Of a DNA stretch of 64,000 nt, positions 25,657 through 41,225 are shown piece after piece (the stretch's first letter is position 1; every line of letters starts with the position of its first letter). Source of the DNA: an uncultured Gemmatimonadales bacterium (GTDB taxonomy: Bacteria; Gemmatimonadota; Gemmatimonadetes; Palauibacterales; Palauibacteraceae); contig CAWANJ010000002.1 in NCBI GenBank assembly GCA_963783385.1, positions 96,001 through 160,000 of the forward strand. Direction: 5' to 3'. Position numbers and translations under genes: made by a program. A model generated the notes under the pieces. It worked only from the letters and a program-made list of their open reading frames with translations. It ran no database searches and had not been told where the DNA came from.

Positions 25657-26433
25657 TCAGCCGGCCGGCGCCTCCCTCTTGTTCGAATCGCCCGGCGCCT
25701 TCCCCTTCCCGGAATCGGCCGGTGTCTTGCCGGCGCCCGCCTTGCCCGGACTCGCCGTGCCGCCGCGCTTGGCGATCAGGGAGTCGAGGACGCCCTTGAA
25801 CTTGGCGAACGGCGCGGCGCCCTCCATGGAGATCGAGTCCCCGATGATGAAGAAGGGCGTCCCGTTCACGCCGACCCGGGTCACGCTGGCCAGGTCGCGC
25901 ACCTGGAGCGGGGACGGGCGATCCTCCTCCAGGCATTGCCGGTAGGAGGTGGAGTCGATCCCCAGATCCTCCGCGTACTTCATGAAGAAGTCCACCGGGG
26001 TGTCGGACTTGGCCCACTCGTCCTGGTTCCGGAACAGCATGTCGTGCATGGGCCAGAACTTCCCCACCGCCCCCGCGCAGAAGCTCGCCTCGATGGCCGG
26101 CCATGAGTGTACGTGCCGGGGGTTGGGGAAGGAGATCCACAGGTACTGGATCTTCCCCGTCTTCACGTAGGCGCTGTCGATCTTCGGATACGTCTCGTCG
26201 AAGTACTGCTTGCAGTAGGGGCACTGGAAGTCGGAGACCTCGATCATCCGCAGCGGCGCCGACGTGTCGCCCTTCACCCGGGCCCGGTCCGCCCGTTGCA
26301 TGATCACCGACACGTCGGACGGGACCACCGAGCCGTCGGGCGTGGTCTGTGCGTTCCCGTCCTTGTCGGCGCAGCCGGAGGCGACCAGGGGGAGAAGCGT
26401 GAACAGGAGGAGTGCCAGGCGGCGTCGGGGCAT
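25657..26433 (-). CDS. DsbA-family (thioredoxin_4) lipoprotein
   Basis: Lipobox-like ASGC, IEVSDFQCPYC active site and GVNGTPFFII cis-Pro loop. Confidence 0.9.
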   Translation of the reverse strand: MPRRRLALLLFTLLPLVASGCADKDGNAQTTPDGSVVPSDVSVIMQRADRARVKGDTSAPLRMIEVSDFQCPYCKQYFDETYPKIDSAYVKTGKIQYLWISFPNPRHVHSWPAIEASFCAGAVGKFWPMHDMLFRNQDEWAKSDTPVDFFMKYAEDLGIDSTSYRQCLEEDRPSPLQVRDLASVTRVGVNGTPFFIIGDSISMEGAAPFAKFKGVLDSLIAKRGGTASPGKAGAGKTPADSGKGKAPGDSNKREAPAG

Positions 26434-36041: not shown

Positions 36042-36070
36042 TTGCGAAGGGTCCCGGGCTGGCGTATACT
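36042..36070 (+). promoter_or_regulatory. Sigma70-type promoter of recA
   Basis: TTGCGA (36042-47), a 17-nt spacer and TATACT (36065-70), 52 bp upstream of the ATG. Confidence 0.65.
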
Positions 36071-36122
36071 CGAGGTCCGCGATGGACGCCGCACCAACGA
36101 GAGGAAGAGGCAGGGAGCTCCG

Positions 36123-37181
36123 ATGGCCGTAGAGATCACGGACGAAAAGAAGAAGGCGCTCGACGTCGCGATCAACCAGATCGAGCGGCAGCACGGCAAG
36201 GGCGCCATCATGCGGCTCGGGGCCGAAGGGGCGCGCGTGAAGACGGAGGCTATTTCGACGGGCGCCATCAACCTCGACCACGCCGTCGGCATCGGGGGGG
36301 TCCCGCGGGGCCGCGTCACCGAGATCTACGGCCCGGAGTCCTCCGGGAAGACGACGCTCACGCTGCACGTCATTGCGAACGCGCAGAAGGAGGGGGGCGT
36401 GGCGGCCTTCATCGACGCCGAGCATGCCCTGGACGTCCAGTACGCGGAGAAGCTGGGCGTGGACACCGAGAACCTTCTCGTCTCCCAGCCGGACACCGGG
36501 GAACAGGCGCTGGAGATCGCCGAGGTCCTGGTCCGGTCGGGCGCGCTCGACGTCGTGGTCGTAGACTCGGTGGCCGCCCTCGTGCCCCGGGCCGAGATCG
36601 AGGGCGAGATGGGGGACGCGCACGTCGGGCTCCAGGCGCGCCTCATGTCCCAGGCGATGCGGAAGCTCACCGGCGCCATCGGCCGTTCCCGCACCGCCCT
36701 CGTATTCACCAACCAGATCCGCGAGAAGATCGGGGTCATGTTCGGCAACCCCGAGACGACCTCCGGCGGCCGGGCGCTCAAGTTCTACGCGTCGCTGCGC
36801 CTCGACATCCGCCGCATCGCCTCCATCAAGGAGGGGAACGAGCAGGTCGGGAACCGGACGCGGGTCAAGGTCGTGAAGAACAAGTGTGCTCCGCCGTTCA
36901 AGCAGGCCGAGTTCGACATCATGTTCAACGAGGGGATCAGCAACGAGGGCCTCCTCATCGACCTCGGGGAGGAGGCCGGAGTCGTCGACCGGGCCGGCGC
37001 CTGGTACTCCTACGGCGAGGACGTGCGGCTCGGGCAGGGCCGGGAGAACTCGAAGCAGTTCCTCAAGGAGAACCCGGACATCGCGGCCGAGATCGAGACG
37101 AAGATCAAGGACGAGCTCGGCCTCAGGAAGCCGGACGCCGCCTCCGAGGACGAGGAGGGCGAGCCGTCGGACGAGGATTGA
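36123..37181 (+). CDS. recA: Recombinase RecA
   Basis: [30 protein letters not shown] and [10 protein letters not shown]. Confidence 0.99.
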
Positions 37182-37197: not shown

Positions 37198-37677
37198 ATG
37201 CCGGCTGACGAGGACCCGCGCGAGGAGGCTCTGAGGCGGGCGTTCCGCTACCTCTCGCACCGCCCTCGCACGCGCTCCGAGCTGGAGCGCCACCTGGCGC
37301 GCCGCGGCTACGACGACGCGGTCGTGGCCGCCGCCCTCCGGCGCTGCGAGGCGCTGGGCTACGTGGATGACCCCGCGTTCGCGGTCTCCTGGACCCTGGA
37401 CCGGATCCGCCTTAAGCCCCGGGGCATCGCCCGGATCCGGATGGAGCTCCGTGAGAAGGGCGTGTCGGAGGAGGACGCGTGGGCGGGCATCCGCCACGCA
37501 TTCGCCGAGGAAGGGATCGAGGAGCGAGACCTGCTCGAGCGCGCGGCCGAGAAGCGTTGGAGGGCCCGGCGCTCGGAGGACCCGCGGACCGTCCGCCGCC
37601 GCCTGGCGGCCTACCTCGAGCGGCGCGGCTTTCCCTCCAACGACGTCCGCGAGATCGTGGACCACCTGGTGCGATAG
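37198..37677 (+). CDS. recX: Regulatory protein RecX
   Basis: Follows recA. YLSHRPRTRSEL, GYVDDPAFA, RIRMELREKG and YLERRGF. Confidence 0.93.
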   Translation: MPADEDPREEALRRAFRYLSHRPRTRSELERHLARRGYDDAVVAAALRRCEALGYVDDPAFAVSWTLDRIRLKPRGIARIRMELREKGVSEEDAWAGIRHAFAEEGIEERDLLERAAEKRWRARRSEDPRTVRRRLAAYLERRGFPSNDVREIVDHLVR

Positions 37678-37841
37678 GCGGCGACGAGGACTCGTACGGC
37701 CACCGCGCTGAACGGAGCCCCCGAAAGGTCGATGGCGTCCGCCATGCTACCGGAATTCTTCGGAGCGGCAGGTTCGACGTTCGCAGCGGGGCTCTCATCG
37801 AATGCTGGGGTGCTACACAGGGATAATCTACGATTCGCTGC

Positions 37842-37871
37842 TTGACAAAAAAGGTAAATGTGAGCGAGATT
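37842..37871 (+). promoter_or_regulatory. Candidate promoter of the cysteine-rich peptide cassette
   Basis: Consensus TTGACA at 37842-47 in an AT-rich patch. A weak -10 (GAGATT, 37866-71) follows at 18-nt spacing. Confidence 0.4.
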
Positions 37872-37921
37872 CCGATTCCAGCGGTTACGGAGTTTGTGGA
37901 ATCGTCGCTCGGGATGAGACC

Positions 37922-38140
37922 ATGCCCAAGCGCTTGATCGTAGCCATCTCCGCCGCGATTGTGACCATTTCGGGGTCGGCCTACCTGTTGTCGCCAGCTA
38001 ACGTCCAGGCCGCTACCGCATCTGCCGGGCTGTGCGACCAGAGTTGCCATTCGAATTCTGATTGCAGCGCTGATCCCCTATGCTCCAAGTGCTCAGCGAA
38101 TCCAAAGTCTCCCGCAAATGGCTCGTGTGGTGGCACATGA
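37922..38140 (+). CDS. Secreted 72-aa six-cysteine peptide, cystine-knot (PCI-like) spacing
   Basis: The Sec signal MPKRLIVAISAAIVTISGSAYLLSPANVQA is followed by ATASAGLCDQSCHSNSDCSADPLCSKCSANPKSPANGSCGGT. It lies directly upstream of a DsbA gene on the same strand. Confidence 0.8.
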   Translation: MPKRLIVAISAAIVTISGSAYLLSPANVQAATASAGLCDQSCHSNSDCSADPLCSKCSANPKSPANGSCGGT

Positions 38141-38190
38141 ACCTGACACATTTCCGGTCGCTGACGAGTTGACCGGACCGGAGGTCGGGT
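38141..38190 (+). terminator. Intercistronic hairpin after the peptide gene
   Basis: acctgac (38141-47) pairs with gtcgggt (38184-90), and tccggtc (38153-59) pairs with gaccgga (38171-77). There is no U-tract. Confidence 0.4.
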
Positions 38191-38221
38191 CGGCTCATTC
38201 ACTTTCTGTCGGGACGGTCGG

Positions 38222-38899
38222 GTGGGCCGGTCGGATCAATTTCAGAACGTAGCCGTGGGCATCCTCGCCGCGTGCGCGGTGGTCACGACGGCCCTGGTTG
38301 CGCGCCACGAACTGACCTCTCGTCGGCGAGCTCCCGAGAATCCAGGTCGGTACCGAGTCGATGCCCGGACGCAGAAGACCGCGCAGGACGGGGGGCACCT
38401 GATCGGCAATCGACAAGCCGCCTTGAAGATCGTGGAGTTTGCGGATCTGGAGTGTCCATTCTGCGCCCGAGCTCAATCCGTTCTGGACTCGGTGATGGAC
38501 GCCTTCCACGGACGGGTGGCCGTAATCTTCCGCCACGATCCCATTTCCGATCTCCATCCCCACGCCTTCCGCGCAGCTCTTTCCTCGGAATGCGCCGGGG
38601 AGCAGCATCGATTTCCTGCTTTTGTGCGCGAGATCTACGCCATCCAGGATTCTCTCGGGCTCATCCCCCGGGTCCAGCTTGCAGCGAGGGCGGGGGTCCG
38701 GGACACCATCCGATTCAAATCGTGCCTCGACAATGGGCGATATGAGGATGTGATTGCCAGGGACGCGCGTGCGGCGAGGCGCCTCGGCGTCTCAGGCACA
38801 CCGACGTTTCTGATCGGTGAGACCGTCCAGAGAGGTCTGCCCCCCGATAGCGTTCTGGTCCATGAGATACGAACTGCGCTGGGGGAGCGATCGCACTGA
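38222..38899 (+). CDS. Membrane-anchored DsbA-family thiol-disulfide oxidoreductase
   Basis: N-terminal hydrophobic anchor, IVEFADLECPFC, FRHDPISDLHPHAF, ECAGEQ and LGVSGTPTFLI. Confidence 0.92.
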   Translation: MGRSDQFQNVAVGILAACAVVTTALVARHELTSRRRAPENPGRYRVDARTQKTAQDGGHLIGNRQAALKIVEFADLECPFCARAQSVLDSVMDAFHGRVAVIFRHDPISDLHPHAFRAALSSECAGEQHRFPAFVREIYAIQDSLGLIPRVQLAARAGVRDTIRFKSCLDNGRYEDVIARDARAARRLGVSGTPTFLIGETVQRGLPPDSVLVHEIRTALGERSH

Positions 38900-38978
38900 G
38901 ATACAGCCTCGTTCCCCTGCCCCGTCACGTACGGACGCCCGGGTCGGAGCCGCGGAAGCTCCTGCGGTCGGGACCGCG

Positions 38979-40170
38979 ATGGGCTCCACGGGTCTTCCGG
39001 ACGAAACGGCGATCTTCCTGTCTGATCTTCTTCCTCCTCCTGACCGGTCTGGCCGCTTGTGGCCGGCGCCCATCCCGGCCGACGACTCGGTTCGACCCCG
39101 ACGTGCCGCGAAGACTCTTGACAGCCAGGGCGGGGTGCCATGACTGCCTCGATGTGACGATCGTCGCGACCCTGGGGCGCGCGGGCGATTCGGTCTCGAT
39201 CGACGCCACGGCTCCTTTTGGGGCGTCGTGTTCGGTGCTCCATCTCGACAACGGCCACTTCGTGGTCAGCGGTCTCGTCGGTGGCGGGGAACTGGGGGTC
39301 TACGACGCACAGGGGAAGTGGCTTCGGGCCGTGGGACGCCCCGGTCAGGGGCCCGGGGAGTTCCAACGTCAACTGGACCTGGCTACGGTGGCCGGCGATA
39401 CGTTCGAAGTGTTGGACAGGTTCAATCTGCGTGCGACCAAAGCCACGTCGGCGGGCGAGTTCCTGGGCTCCTTCAGAACGCCCGAAGCTGCCAACGGACT
39501 CATCGCCATGGGCCGCGACCGGTGGCTGGTCCTGGAGACCCCGGGAAGCGCGGCTGTGCGAGACTCCCTGTTCGTCCTAGTCGACGATTCCGGAGCCGTC
39601 GTGCGCGCCTTCGGCGCGTCCTCGCCCGCTCTCGCCGATCTGGATGCATGGACGGCCGCCAGGGGCCGGGACGGGGACCTGTTCACCGCCAGCGTGTGGC
39701 ATTACGAGATTTATCACTGGACGAACCGGGGGAAGCTCGAGGAGACTTTCCTGCGCCACGCTCCGTGGTTTCCCGACGCACAGGTGGTAACTCCTCGGAG
39801 GCTGGACCGCATGTTCGGGGAGCTTCCACCCGTGGATTACCTGGAGCACATCGCGGTCGACGATCGCGGTCGACTCTGGACCTTCTCGCTGATTCCCGAT
39901 CCCGATTGGACGCCCGGCCCGACCCACTTCACGTCGCCGGCTTGGACTCGACACACTTTTGACACGATGGTGGAGGTCGTGGATGTCCGGGACCCCGTGA
40001 GAGCGAGGGTGGTCGCCTCGCGACGCTTCGATTCCGTCGTAGCTCCCATCTGTGGAAGGGATCTGCTCCTGTACCGGCTGATAGAAACAGCTGTGGGTGA
40101 CACTCGAGCCGAAATCTTGGCACCGCGAGTGACGGTCGCTGGCCACACTCCCGAGACAGACCGGAACTGA
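38979..40170 (+). CDS. Six-bladed beta-propeller-like lipoprotein (start uncertain)
   Basis: The frame of ORF 39103 extends upstream as TKRRSSCLIFFLLLTGLAA-C (lipobox), then CHDC and VYDAQGKWLRAVGRPGQGPGEF (NHL/6-blade propeller motif). ATG 38979 would need a 1-nt indel. Confidence 0.78.
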
Positions 40171-40256
40171 AAGGCCCGCCCCGTGCCTCCACGCACAGGC
40201 TGACTCCCGGCCTCCGCGTGACGCTCCGGTTCCCCGGCCGGCGGGGGAATCGGGGC

Positions 40257-40877
40257 TCAGTCGACCGCTACCGGATGGAAGCGGCCACTCTCCAGGTCGA
40301 GGGCGTCCACGCGGCCTTCCTCGAGGATGTAGTGCCACCCGTGCAGCGCCAGATCACCGGCCTCCGTACGTTCCCGCACGATGGGGTATTCGGCCAGTCG
40401 CCCCAGCTGCAGCGCGATGCTGCGCCGTTCGGTCTCCCGCAGCGTATCCTCGTCGGGAGCGCCGTCCCCGGCGGGCAGCGCCGCGGGCCGGGCCAGCCCG
40501 AGCCAGCGCTCCAGGTTGGGCGCCGGCACGTCCGGGGGCTCGTACAGGGCGCGCACCGCGCCGCAGTGACTGTGGCCGCACACCACAATGTCCCGGACGC
40601 CCAGCACCGCGACCGCGTACTCAATGGCGGCGGCCGCCTCGTGCTCACCGACCTCGGGGTCGTGAGGCGGCACGAGCGCGCCCACGTTGCGGGACACGAA
40701 CAGGTCGCCCGGCCCCGAGTCGGTCAGGAGGTCGGGGAGCACGCGGGAGTCCGAGCAGCCGATGAACAGGGTGCCCGGGCGCTGCCCCGCCGCCACCAGC
40801 TCGCGGAAGTGCTCCCGGTAGCCGGGGAACGCCTCCCTGTGGAAACGCTGCAAGCCCCGGAGGAGGCTGTCGGACAT
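40257..40877 (-). CDS. Beta-class carbonic anhydrase
   Basis: FIGCSDSRV, LFVSRNVG, IEYAV, VCGHSHCGA and LHGWHY. Confidence 0.95.
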   Translation of the reverse strand: MSDSLLRGLQRFHREAFPGYREHFRELVAAGQRPGTLFIGCSDSRVLPDLLTDSGPGDLFVSRNVGALVPPHDPEVGEHEAAAAIEYAVAVLGVRDIVVCGHSHCGAVRALYEPPDVPAPNLERWLGLARPAALPAGDGAPDEDTLRETERRSIALQLGRLAEYPIVRERTEAGDLALHGWHYILEEGRVDALDLESGRFHPVAVD

Positions 40878-41225
40878 GCTCCGACCTCGCGTCTCTGGGA
40901 TCCTCGTCGAACGGGCGACGTAGGATAGCGGCATCGGGTCGCCGTGCGAAGGCGGGGGGGCACGGCCCTCCGCCTCGGCCCTCGCACGCCGAACATCGCG
41001 GCCGGCCGGAGCCGACGGCCGCCGCCGACAGGCGCCCCGGTCCGGGATCCGGGGCGTGCGCGCGCGCCCGTCGCGCCGCTACCTTCCGGACGGCGGCGCC
41101 CGCACGCTTCCTGCACCCGGCAGGACACGCGCGGGCGCCGCGGTGTACGGAGAAGGCGGCGGCGTGCGAGGGATGCCGGACGGGGCCCGGGAGCCGAAGC
41201 GACCACGCAAGCCCACGAGAGGGGA

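Follow-up and report, generated by a model that had tools for sequence, protein, structure and literature searches.

Much is known about the native disulfide-rich mini-proteins of plants and animals and very little about those of bacteria. The locus analysed here raises the question of whether an uncultured Gemmatimonadales bacterium makes such a mini-protein and, if so, whether the product is a knottin of the type known from potato and tomato or a peptide of another kind. The window, by which the whole stretch of analysed DNA (64,000 nucleotides) is meant, contains a compact cassette in which the peptide gene comes first, a DsbA-like gene second and a propeller gene third. The features used below are the following:

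37678..40256, no strand assigned: low-GC island with the three-gene cassette, between recX (which ends at 37677) and a carbonic anhydrase gene
37911..37918, plus strand: Shine-Dalgarno-like stretch 5' of the start codon, GGGATGAG in the window
37922-38140, plus strand: ORF of the six-Cys peptide, 72 aa by direct translation
37922..38011, plus strand: signal peptide, covering residues 1-30 of the precursor (K3 R4, hydrophobic core, NVQA ending)
38012..38140, plus strand: mature six-Cys peptide and stop codon, with a three-residue tail (from the translation and the comparison with orthologue and paralogue)
38222..38899, plus strand: DsbA-family thiol:disulfide oxidoreductase, 225 aa (Thioredoxin_4 74.1 bits, DSBA 46.3 bits)
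38961..40170, plus strand: NHL/DUF5128-type six-bladed propeller, 355-370 aa, probable lipoprotein (family profile, PDB, lipobox)
40257-40934, minus strand: carbonic anhydrase gene, right flank of the island

The peptide gene and its relatives

Translation of the ORF at 37922-38140 yields a mature region of 42 residues with exactly six cysteines in the frame C-x3-C-x5-C-x5-C-x2-C-x11-C. A previous sequence-only reading of the locus had described a Sec signal followed by a mature region of about 42 residues with six cysteines spaced 3, 5, 5, 2 and 11, and this description was borne out by the translation. The likely site of signal-peptide cleavage, after an A-x-A-like V-Q-A, was read by eye from the sequence. 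The product presents six cysteines within a predicted exported domain of the ~30-50 residue class, in a spacing compatible with the potato/tomato knottin family. The five-Cys frame C-x3-C-x5-C-x5-C-x2-C has only two matches in the 7,087,174 six-frame residues of the genome, namely the gene and its paralogue, where composition predicts 0.023, or 0.0008 when an Asp ahead of Cys III is included. Elsewhere in the genome, two small ORFs with signal-like N-termini and 4-5 Cys (C6:507824 and C6:175524, plus strand) possibly encode other secreted Cys-rich peptides.

A database version of the protein (P0002, 112 aa) begins at the alternative start ATG 37802. Judged by comparison of related sequences, the start of the peptide gene is ATG 37922 and not ATG 37802, because the orthologue does not have the N-terminal extension of P0002, a 1-base deletion at 37855 in one metagenome contig would break the 37802 frame, and a T>G change at 37915 in three of the four metagenome runs places GGAGG 7 bases ahead of ATG 37922. 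The orthologue also has GGAGG 7 bases ahead of the peptide start. The whole Shine-Dalgarno-like site reads GGGAGGAG in the orthologue and in the same proportion of the runs (3/4), and AGGAGAAGG is found at the same place in the paralogue. The related contigs are 95-100% alike and come from runs on soil, sediment and salt marsh in several studies; among the differences listed for four runs over a 2.5-kb stretch there is one indel, which lies upstream of the peptide start codon.

The paralogue is located on contig C9 (L002:1495-1713, minus strand); its product shares 56% identity and the six-Cys frame with that of the window. The orthologue was found in the same-genus genome G050 (L004) and on a 134-kb metagenome contig (L024), and its mature peptide is identical to that of the window. 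Between the window and L024, the mature part differs by 3 synonymous changes and no non-synonymous one, and the signal peptide by 4 non-synonymous changes and no synonymous one. For the two paralogues, the segment from Cys I to Cys VI gave dN 0.22 and dS 1.6, with a ratio of 0.14. Since the paralogue keeps the Cys frame with this low ratio and the orthologue differs in its mature part by synonymous changes only, the ORF is, by these measures, a real gene under selection and its product is constrained. Homologues with a conserved Cys frame, on whose existence the sequence-only reading had made itself depend, are provided by both of these relatives. As a separate observation, recA of the orthologous strain (L024:724-3135 on the metagenome contig and L004:3-764 in G050) is split by ~1290 intein-like bases; the window recA (36042-37181) has no such insert.

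Beyond these two, the searches gave few candidates. A search of 5.8 billion clustered proteins returned one candidate, the peptide itself, and a search of 1.84 billion representative proteins returned the peptide itself and P0003 (503 aa, E 1.5e-4). The latter was judged unrelated: its cysteine frame is different, it has no C-x2-C and its best Pfam match is the DX module. P0003 itself contains an acidic Cys motif, repeated about seven times, in which the spacing 3, 5, 5 is followed by a long loop. In 114 genomes of the family, real matches to the peptide were restricted to its own genome and G050, two matches at E~0.008 being wrong-frame noise, and the 13 weak matches obtained with the peptide in 401 genomes of the phylum were all noise on inspection. 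Cys-pattern scans of genome contigs and of metagenome contigs detected one relative each, in both cases the orthologue. A third match in the own genome (L003) falls within a membrane protease gene and is spurious. The best scores in the ESM Atlas, 0.82 and 0.78, were taken as leads only.

The cassette partners and their recurrence

The DsbA-like gene starts 82 bases downstream of the peptide gene, which argues for disulfides rather than metal binding in the peptide. Its product has an N-terminal hydrophobic membrane anchor (~residues 9-27) and a CPFC motif encoded at 38453-38464. Five Thioredoxin_4 matches were detected in the genome, one of which, also DsbA-like, adjoins a VKOR gene on contig C1, away from the cassette; because of this separate gene beside VKOR, the cassette oxidases are considered as extra copies. 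The arrangement is that expected of a DsbA with a private substrate, with an additional CxxC DsbA-family gene beside the gene of the putative substrate and the housekeeping pathway elsewhere, and the peptide-DsbA layout is conserved in the second copy of the cassette and in three other genomes. A further Thioredoxin_4 domain (95.6 bits) lies in the window at ~25783-26283 on the minus strand (G000:C2:121783-122283), in a 424-aa frame, and is unrelated to the cassette.

The canonical ORF of the propeller starts at GTG 39103, and a lipoprotein-like signal lies in frame upstream of it, with a lipobox L-A-A-C whose Cys codon is at 39058-39060. No ATG, GTG or TTG was found ahead of this signal (window 38902-39103), and CTG 38961 is in frame. 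Since no indel was seen in the start region in any of the four runs, among the differences listed, a non-canonical start (CTG 38961) or a decaying signal is possible. The family profile of the propeller matched NHL propellers in the PDB (E 7.5e-34), and seven of ten family members matched DUF5128 (PF17170; best E 9.6e-10), the window propeller itself reaching 17.3 bits for a cut-off of 22.9. A dN/dS of 0.09 was obtained with the orthologue of the propeller. The family has four invariant cysteines, so that the propeller could be a substrate of DsbA alongside the peptide or in its place. Propeller matches were found in 181 of the 401 phylum genomes, many of them with several. Prediction of a complex between the propeller (10 rows) and the peptide (6 rows) ended in the verdict 'no answer' (score 0.02). 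Five loci in which long open frames surround a DsbA domain were inspected for a fusion of DsbA to a propeller, and none of them contained a propeller.

The GC content is 0.54-0.69 in the cassette stretches of both copies, compared with 0.72-0.77 in recX and the carbonic anhydrase gene and 0.71 genome-wide. In the same-genus genome G051, recX and the carbonic anhydrase gene are ~118 bases apart with no cassette between them, and in two other genera recX adjoins alaS; on this comparison of gene order, the cassette of the window (copy 1) is an insertion between core genes. The whole cassette is duplicated at the C9 locus, where the peptide is 56%, the DsbA-like protein 50% and the propeller 54% identical to those of copy 1. 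In copy 2 the peptide and DsbA genes are intact. Its propeller gene (L007:6587-7700, contig C9) has an in-frame TGA ~50 codons before the expected end and a lipoprotein signal in another frame than the body, and is a probable pseudogene; these two defects imply that the peptide may not need a propeller of its own. A fragment of a DDE transposase adjoins copy 2. Given the low GC, the insertion between core genes and this transposase fragment, the cassette looks mobile.

The recurrence of the cassette was analysed in the 20 best propeller-homologue loci from the 401 sampled phylum genomes, which were inspected for upstream peptides. In three of them (G142, G444 and G307) a signal-bearing peptide gene with six or seven Cys lies just upstream. 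A membrane-anchored CxxC DsbA-like gene is located between peptide and propeller in G142 and G444; in G307 the peptide is directly ahead of the propeller, with no DsbA gene. A profile built from these cassette peptides and the two of the own genome revealed one more case, G251, with the order peptide, DsbA-like, propeller; on inspection, 10 of 11 other weak profile matches were noise and one was doubtful. G142, G444 and G251 represent three other families of the phylum, and the propellers of the related cassettes are 32-37% identical to that of the window. In total, the cassette peptide type, i.e. the window family and its positional equivalents, was found in five of the 401 genomes, own genome included.

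All six cysteines of the six cassette peptides were aligned by MAFFT, with spacings of 3-5, 5, 3 or 5, 2-3 and 9-12. With an HMM made from the four relatives, the two paralogues of the own genome ranked only ~115th (E 34) and 289th (E 87) among 46,346 ORFs, and the reverse search of the 401 genomes with the window peptide retrieved none of the four. Homology to these four relatives is not demonstrable, and they are therefore treated as positional equivalents only. The peptide slot of the cassette would seem, from these comparisons, to be either extremely fast-evolving or exchangeable.

The pairing extends beyond the cassette proper. At 15 of 29 loci of other phylum genomes with close homologues of the cassette DsbA (L061-L089; 104 kb), at least one signal-bearing Cys-rich small ORF was present, for 21 candidates in total. 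Such an ORF was found at three of 29 propeller loci, all three being cassette peptides, and at one of 13 unrelated loci used as control; over the 3.54 Mb of the own genome, 13 candidates were counted. The ORFs at the DsbA-like loci encode 4-10 Cys in many frames, some as tandem pairs, and lie beside membrane-anchored DsbA-like genes. This enrichment suggests that Cys-rich mini-proteins are habitually paired with private oxidases throughout the phylum.

Likeness to the plant carboxypeptidase inhibitors

The sequence-only reading had compared the peptide with the potato carboxypeptidase inhibitor, the first four loops being of identical length. The carboxypeptidase inhibitor family PF02977 (CarbpepA_inh) was the top Pfam family for three queries: it scored 19.9 bits (E 6.4e-4) with the window precursor, 21.8 bits (E 1.6e-4) with the mature part alone and 14.3 bits (E 0.036) with the paralogue, every one of these scores falling below the gathering cut-off of 25 bits. 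When the six-frame translation of the genome was searched with PF02977 at E<=10, the gene (19.6 bits) and the paralogue (14.1 bits) were the only two matches; at the same E-value the family also has matches in 10 of 14 control genomes, never above the cut-off. The only PDB sequence match of the peptide or its profile was 2hlg_A (E 0.13 and 0.16; identity at 11 of 23 aligned positions), a tomato 'fruit-specific protein' which is a member of the PF02977 family. The consensus CXXXCXXXXDCXXXXXCXXC, as it appears in the part of the 2023 source available to us, has been proposed for the Solanaceae carboxypeptidase inhibitors (PMC10687636). It is matched exactly by both paralogues, which are its only two matches in 7.09 million six-frame residues.

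Ten other signal-bearing Cys-rich peptides of the phylum were used as control, and none had a Pfam match at E<=0.01, one of them reaching E 0.063 to a conotoxin family. Since PF02977, 2hlg_A and the consensus were all matched by the peptide while the ten controls gave nothing at this threshold, the resemblance to the plant family is a measurable similarity of sequence that Cys-rich peptides do not have in general; it stays under the family threshold and concerns the first five Cys only. The consensus spacing is present in none of the four positional equivalents from other cassettes, none of which matched PF02977 either, so that the two matching peptides among the six are both from the genus of the window. 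The identity of the first four loops holds up in PF02977, the consensus and 2hlg_A. The broader claim of a plant-inhibitor likeness stands as regards the top Pfam family and the exact consensus, and falls short as regards the scores under the cut-off and the positional equivalents.

The structural predictions were of low confidence. AlphaFold2 gave a mean pLDDT of 52.8 for the mature peptide (3-row alignment) and of 55.5 for the paralogue core (2-row alignment), and a Foldseek search of the PDB with the low-confidence model of the mature peptide (pLDDT 52.8) returned no match; neither outcome speaks for a knot or against one. The spacing 3, 5, 5, 2 and 11 would fit a knot of the potato-inhibitor type; that the peptide is actually knotted is a serious possibility, with the balance lying against it.

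Role of the peptide and comparison with known systems

The explanation that we consider probable is that of a disulfide-bonded mini-protein, located in the envelope or secreted, matured by its private DsbA and acting as a unit with the propeller lipoprotein. The precursor would be exported by the Sec pathway and its signal peptide removed. The 42-residue product would then acquire three disulfides, oxidised by the membrane-anchored DsbA-like protein encoded downstream, which would presumably be re-oxidised by the VKOR of the genome. Peptide, oxidase and propeller would function together, either within the envelope or extracellularly; DsbA would mature the peptide, and the propeller might hold the substrate for it. 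The folded peptide could be a stable binding molecule, e.g. an inhibitor or a ligand, and the propeller its partner or handler. Export, disulfide formation by the cassette DsbA, contact with the propeller and a knotted fold are all deduced in this scheme. A more specific version, in which the peptide would be a true inhibitor cystine knot of bacterial origin and potato/tomato type, with a dedicated disulfide catalyst and an NHL propeller partner, as one branch of a phylum-wide system of mini-proteins and private DsbA proteins, is possible and rather doubtful.

An antagonistic function was also considered, with the peptide as an effector (a bacteriocin-like toxin or an inhibitor of competitors' enzymes), DsbA as its maturation factor and the propeller as immunity protein or decoy. 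A mobile, low-GC and sporadic cassette, whose peptide type occurs in so few of the sampled genomes (5/401), which is duplicated and diverged within one genome and whose peptide slot varies strongly from cassette to cassette, would suit such a role, and the sublancin operon of Bacillus subtilis reportedly encodes its own thiol-disulfide oxidoreductases. The mature peptides are however anionic, not cationic, as read from the alignment, and the cassette has no outer-membrane exporter. In copy 2 it is the supposed immunity gene that is broken and the peptide that is intact, the opposite of what a self-toxic product would require, and the propeller family, present in 181 of 401 genomes, has expanded far past the cassettes. 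This explanation is unlikely.

Less likely still is that the peptide is a true member or a distant homologue of the plant carboxypeptidase-inhibitor family, through ancient shared ancestry or horizontal transfer, and would be a knottin blocking M14 metallocarboxypeptidases with its C-terminus. The family profile that came out on top for both paralogues and matched nothing else in the genome, the exact consensus (PMC10687636), the sole PDB match to a family member and the absence of comparable matches among the ten controls (0/10) are what would be expected of such a homologue, and the genome has four M14 peptidase genes. Nevertheless, all the scores (14.3-21.8 bits for PF02977; E 0.13 and 0.16 in the PDB) are sub-threshold or weak, the plant likeness is restricted to the first five Cys, and the E-value makes the case for the plant family look stronger than it is, because the peptide was chosen for looking like that family. 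There is no protease gene in the cassette, and the cassette partners are ordinary bacterial genes.

The C-terminal tails bear on the same point. In small carboxypeptidase inhibitors, according to the accessible part of the source, the tails have 2-5 residues, and a hydrophobic tail of about 3-5 residues docks in the active site of the carboxypeptidase (PMC6780499). The six cassette peptides end 1-4 residues past the last Cys and so come close to these lengths. However, the tails of the two paralogues are short and differ: that of the window consists of three small or polar residues, that of the paralogue of one Phe. There is thus no conservation between them, and neither resembles a hydrophobic docking tail. 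A carboxypeptidase target is possible, given the four M14 genes, and is unsupported by the tails. Convergence is the most likely origin of the plant-like pattern, and common descent is improbable. Independently of this, four of the six cassette peptides have aromatic or aliphatic residues in their tails, and the short tails recall the docking tails of the small carboxypeptidase inhibitors, an observation which is a lead only.

Finally, it is very improbable that Cys and His bind a metal without forming disulfides, as in a periplasmic metal chaperone or a metallothionein-like peptide: the CxxxC and CxxC spacings and the His conserved after Cys II in both paralogues would be compatible with it, but both copies, and three of the four related cassettes, have an oxidising DsbA-family gene immediately after the peptide gene, the positional equivalents do not conserve the His and the cassette has no metal transporter or regulator.

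Returning to the preferred explanation, the disulfide-bonded mini-protein with a private DsbA and a propeller, its parts can be set beside known systems. With the PF02977 family (MEROPS I37; 2HLG, 1H20), the nearest to it in sequence, the peptide has in common a secreted precursor with a six-Cys core of ~40 residues, identical loops of 3, 5, 5 and 2 residues and an Asp ahead of Cys III; by the disulfide numbering in the available part of the source, the tomato member has a long last loop too (PMC10687636). It differs from that family by its bacterial gene, a score below the cut-off, an 11-residue last loop and the lack of a hydrophobic docking tail, and the plant genes are not encoded with a DsbA and a propeller as the cassette peptide is. 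The knottin fold had also been presented in the sequence-only reading as very rarely reported in bacteria. Bacterial knottin sequences, according to the portion of the source at hand, were already listed in the KNOTTIN database and had no experimental structure as of 2017 (PMC5753296). The cassette peptide is similar to these bacterial entries, which are predicted knottin sequences lacking an experimental structure, and may differ from them in its setting, no DsbA/propeller context being described in that portion of the source (PMC5753296). As a whole, the sequence-only reading is partly supported: it was correct for a real, selected gene encoding an exported six-Cys peptide, and is less well supported for the plant family, the PF02977 scores being below the cut-off and the tails not inhibitor-like; the cassette had no place in it.

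In Bacteroidales, small NVEALA proteins (PF14055) are encoded beside DUF5128/six-bladed propeller lipoproteins, and these cassettes, the nearest counterpart in layout, are uncharacterised. They resemble the present cassette by the small exported peptide gene directly ahead of a DUF5128-like propeller gene and by the expansion of the propeller family; unlike them, the present one encodes Cys-rich peptides and in most cases has a DsbA gene in between. PF14055 matched neither peptide precursor at E<=1. The search of the available literature found no paper with the term NVEALA and no paper describing a cassette of a Cys-rich peptide, a private DsbA and a propeller lipoprotein.

The closest functional parallel is given by the accessory oxidases with a private substrate, of which E. 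coli DsbL/DsbI with arylsulfate sulfotransferase and B. subtilis BdbA/BdbB in the sublancin operon are said to be examples. As in these systems, an extra DsbA-family gene lies beside the gene of a Cys-rich exported product, with Thioredoxin_4 and VKOR genes elsewhere in the genome; unlike in them, the putative substrate is a 4-kDa peptide, the DsbA is membrane-anchored and no DsbB-like gene is present in the cassette. A compact cassette with a six-Cys peptide and its own oxidase would make the question of bacterial mini-proteins easy to test. If the peptide is knotted, the cassette would be a natural production system for knottin scaffolds, and if the knot and the phylum-wide system are both true, it would represent a bacterial counterpart of the diversification of venom peptides or plant defence peptides; if it is not knotted, an ordinary example of an accessory DsbA and its private substrate would still be left. 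The mobile cassette, conserved in its peptide, private DsbA and propeller genes, is a more solid and more interesting result than the knot. Its propeller also has a precedent in the accessory Dsb systems, as DsbI of H. pylori is, from the part of the source available, a membrane redox partner with a beta-propeller (PMC4597128); here too a beta-propeller is part of the locus, in the form of a separate NHL-type lipoprotein.
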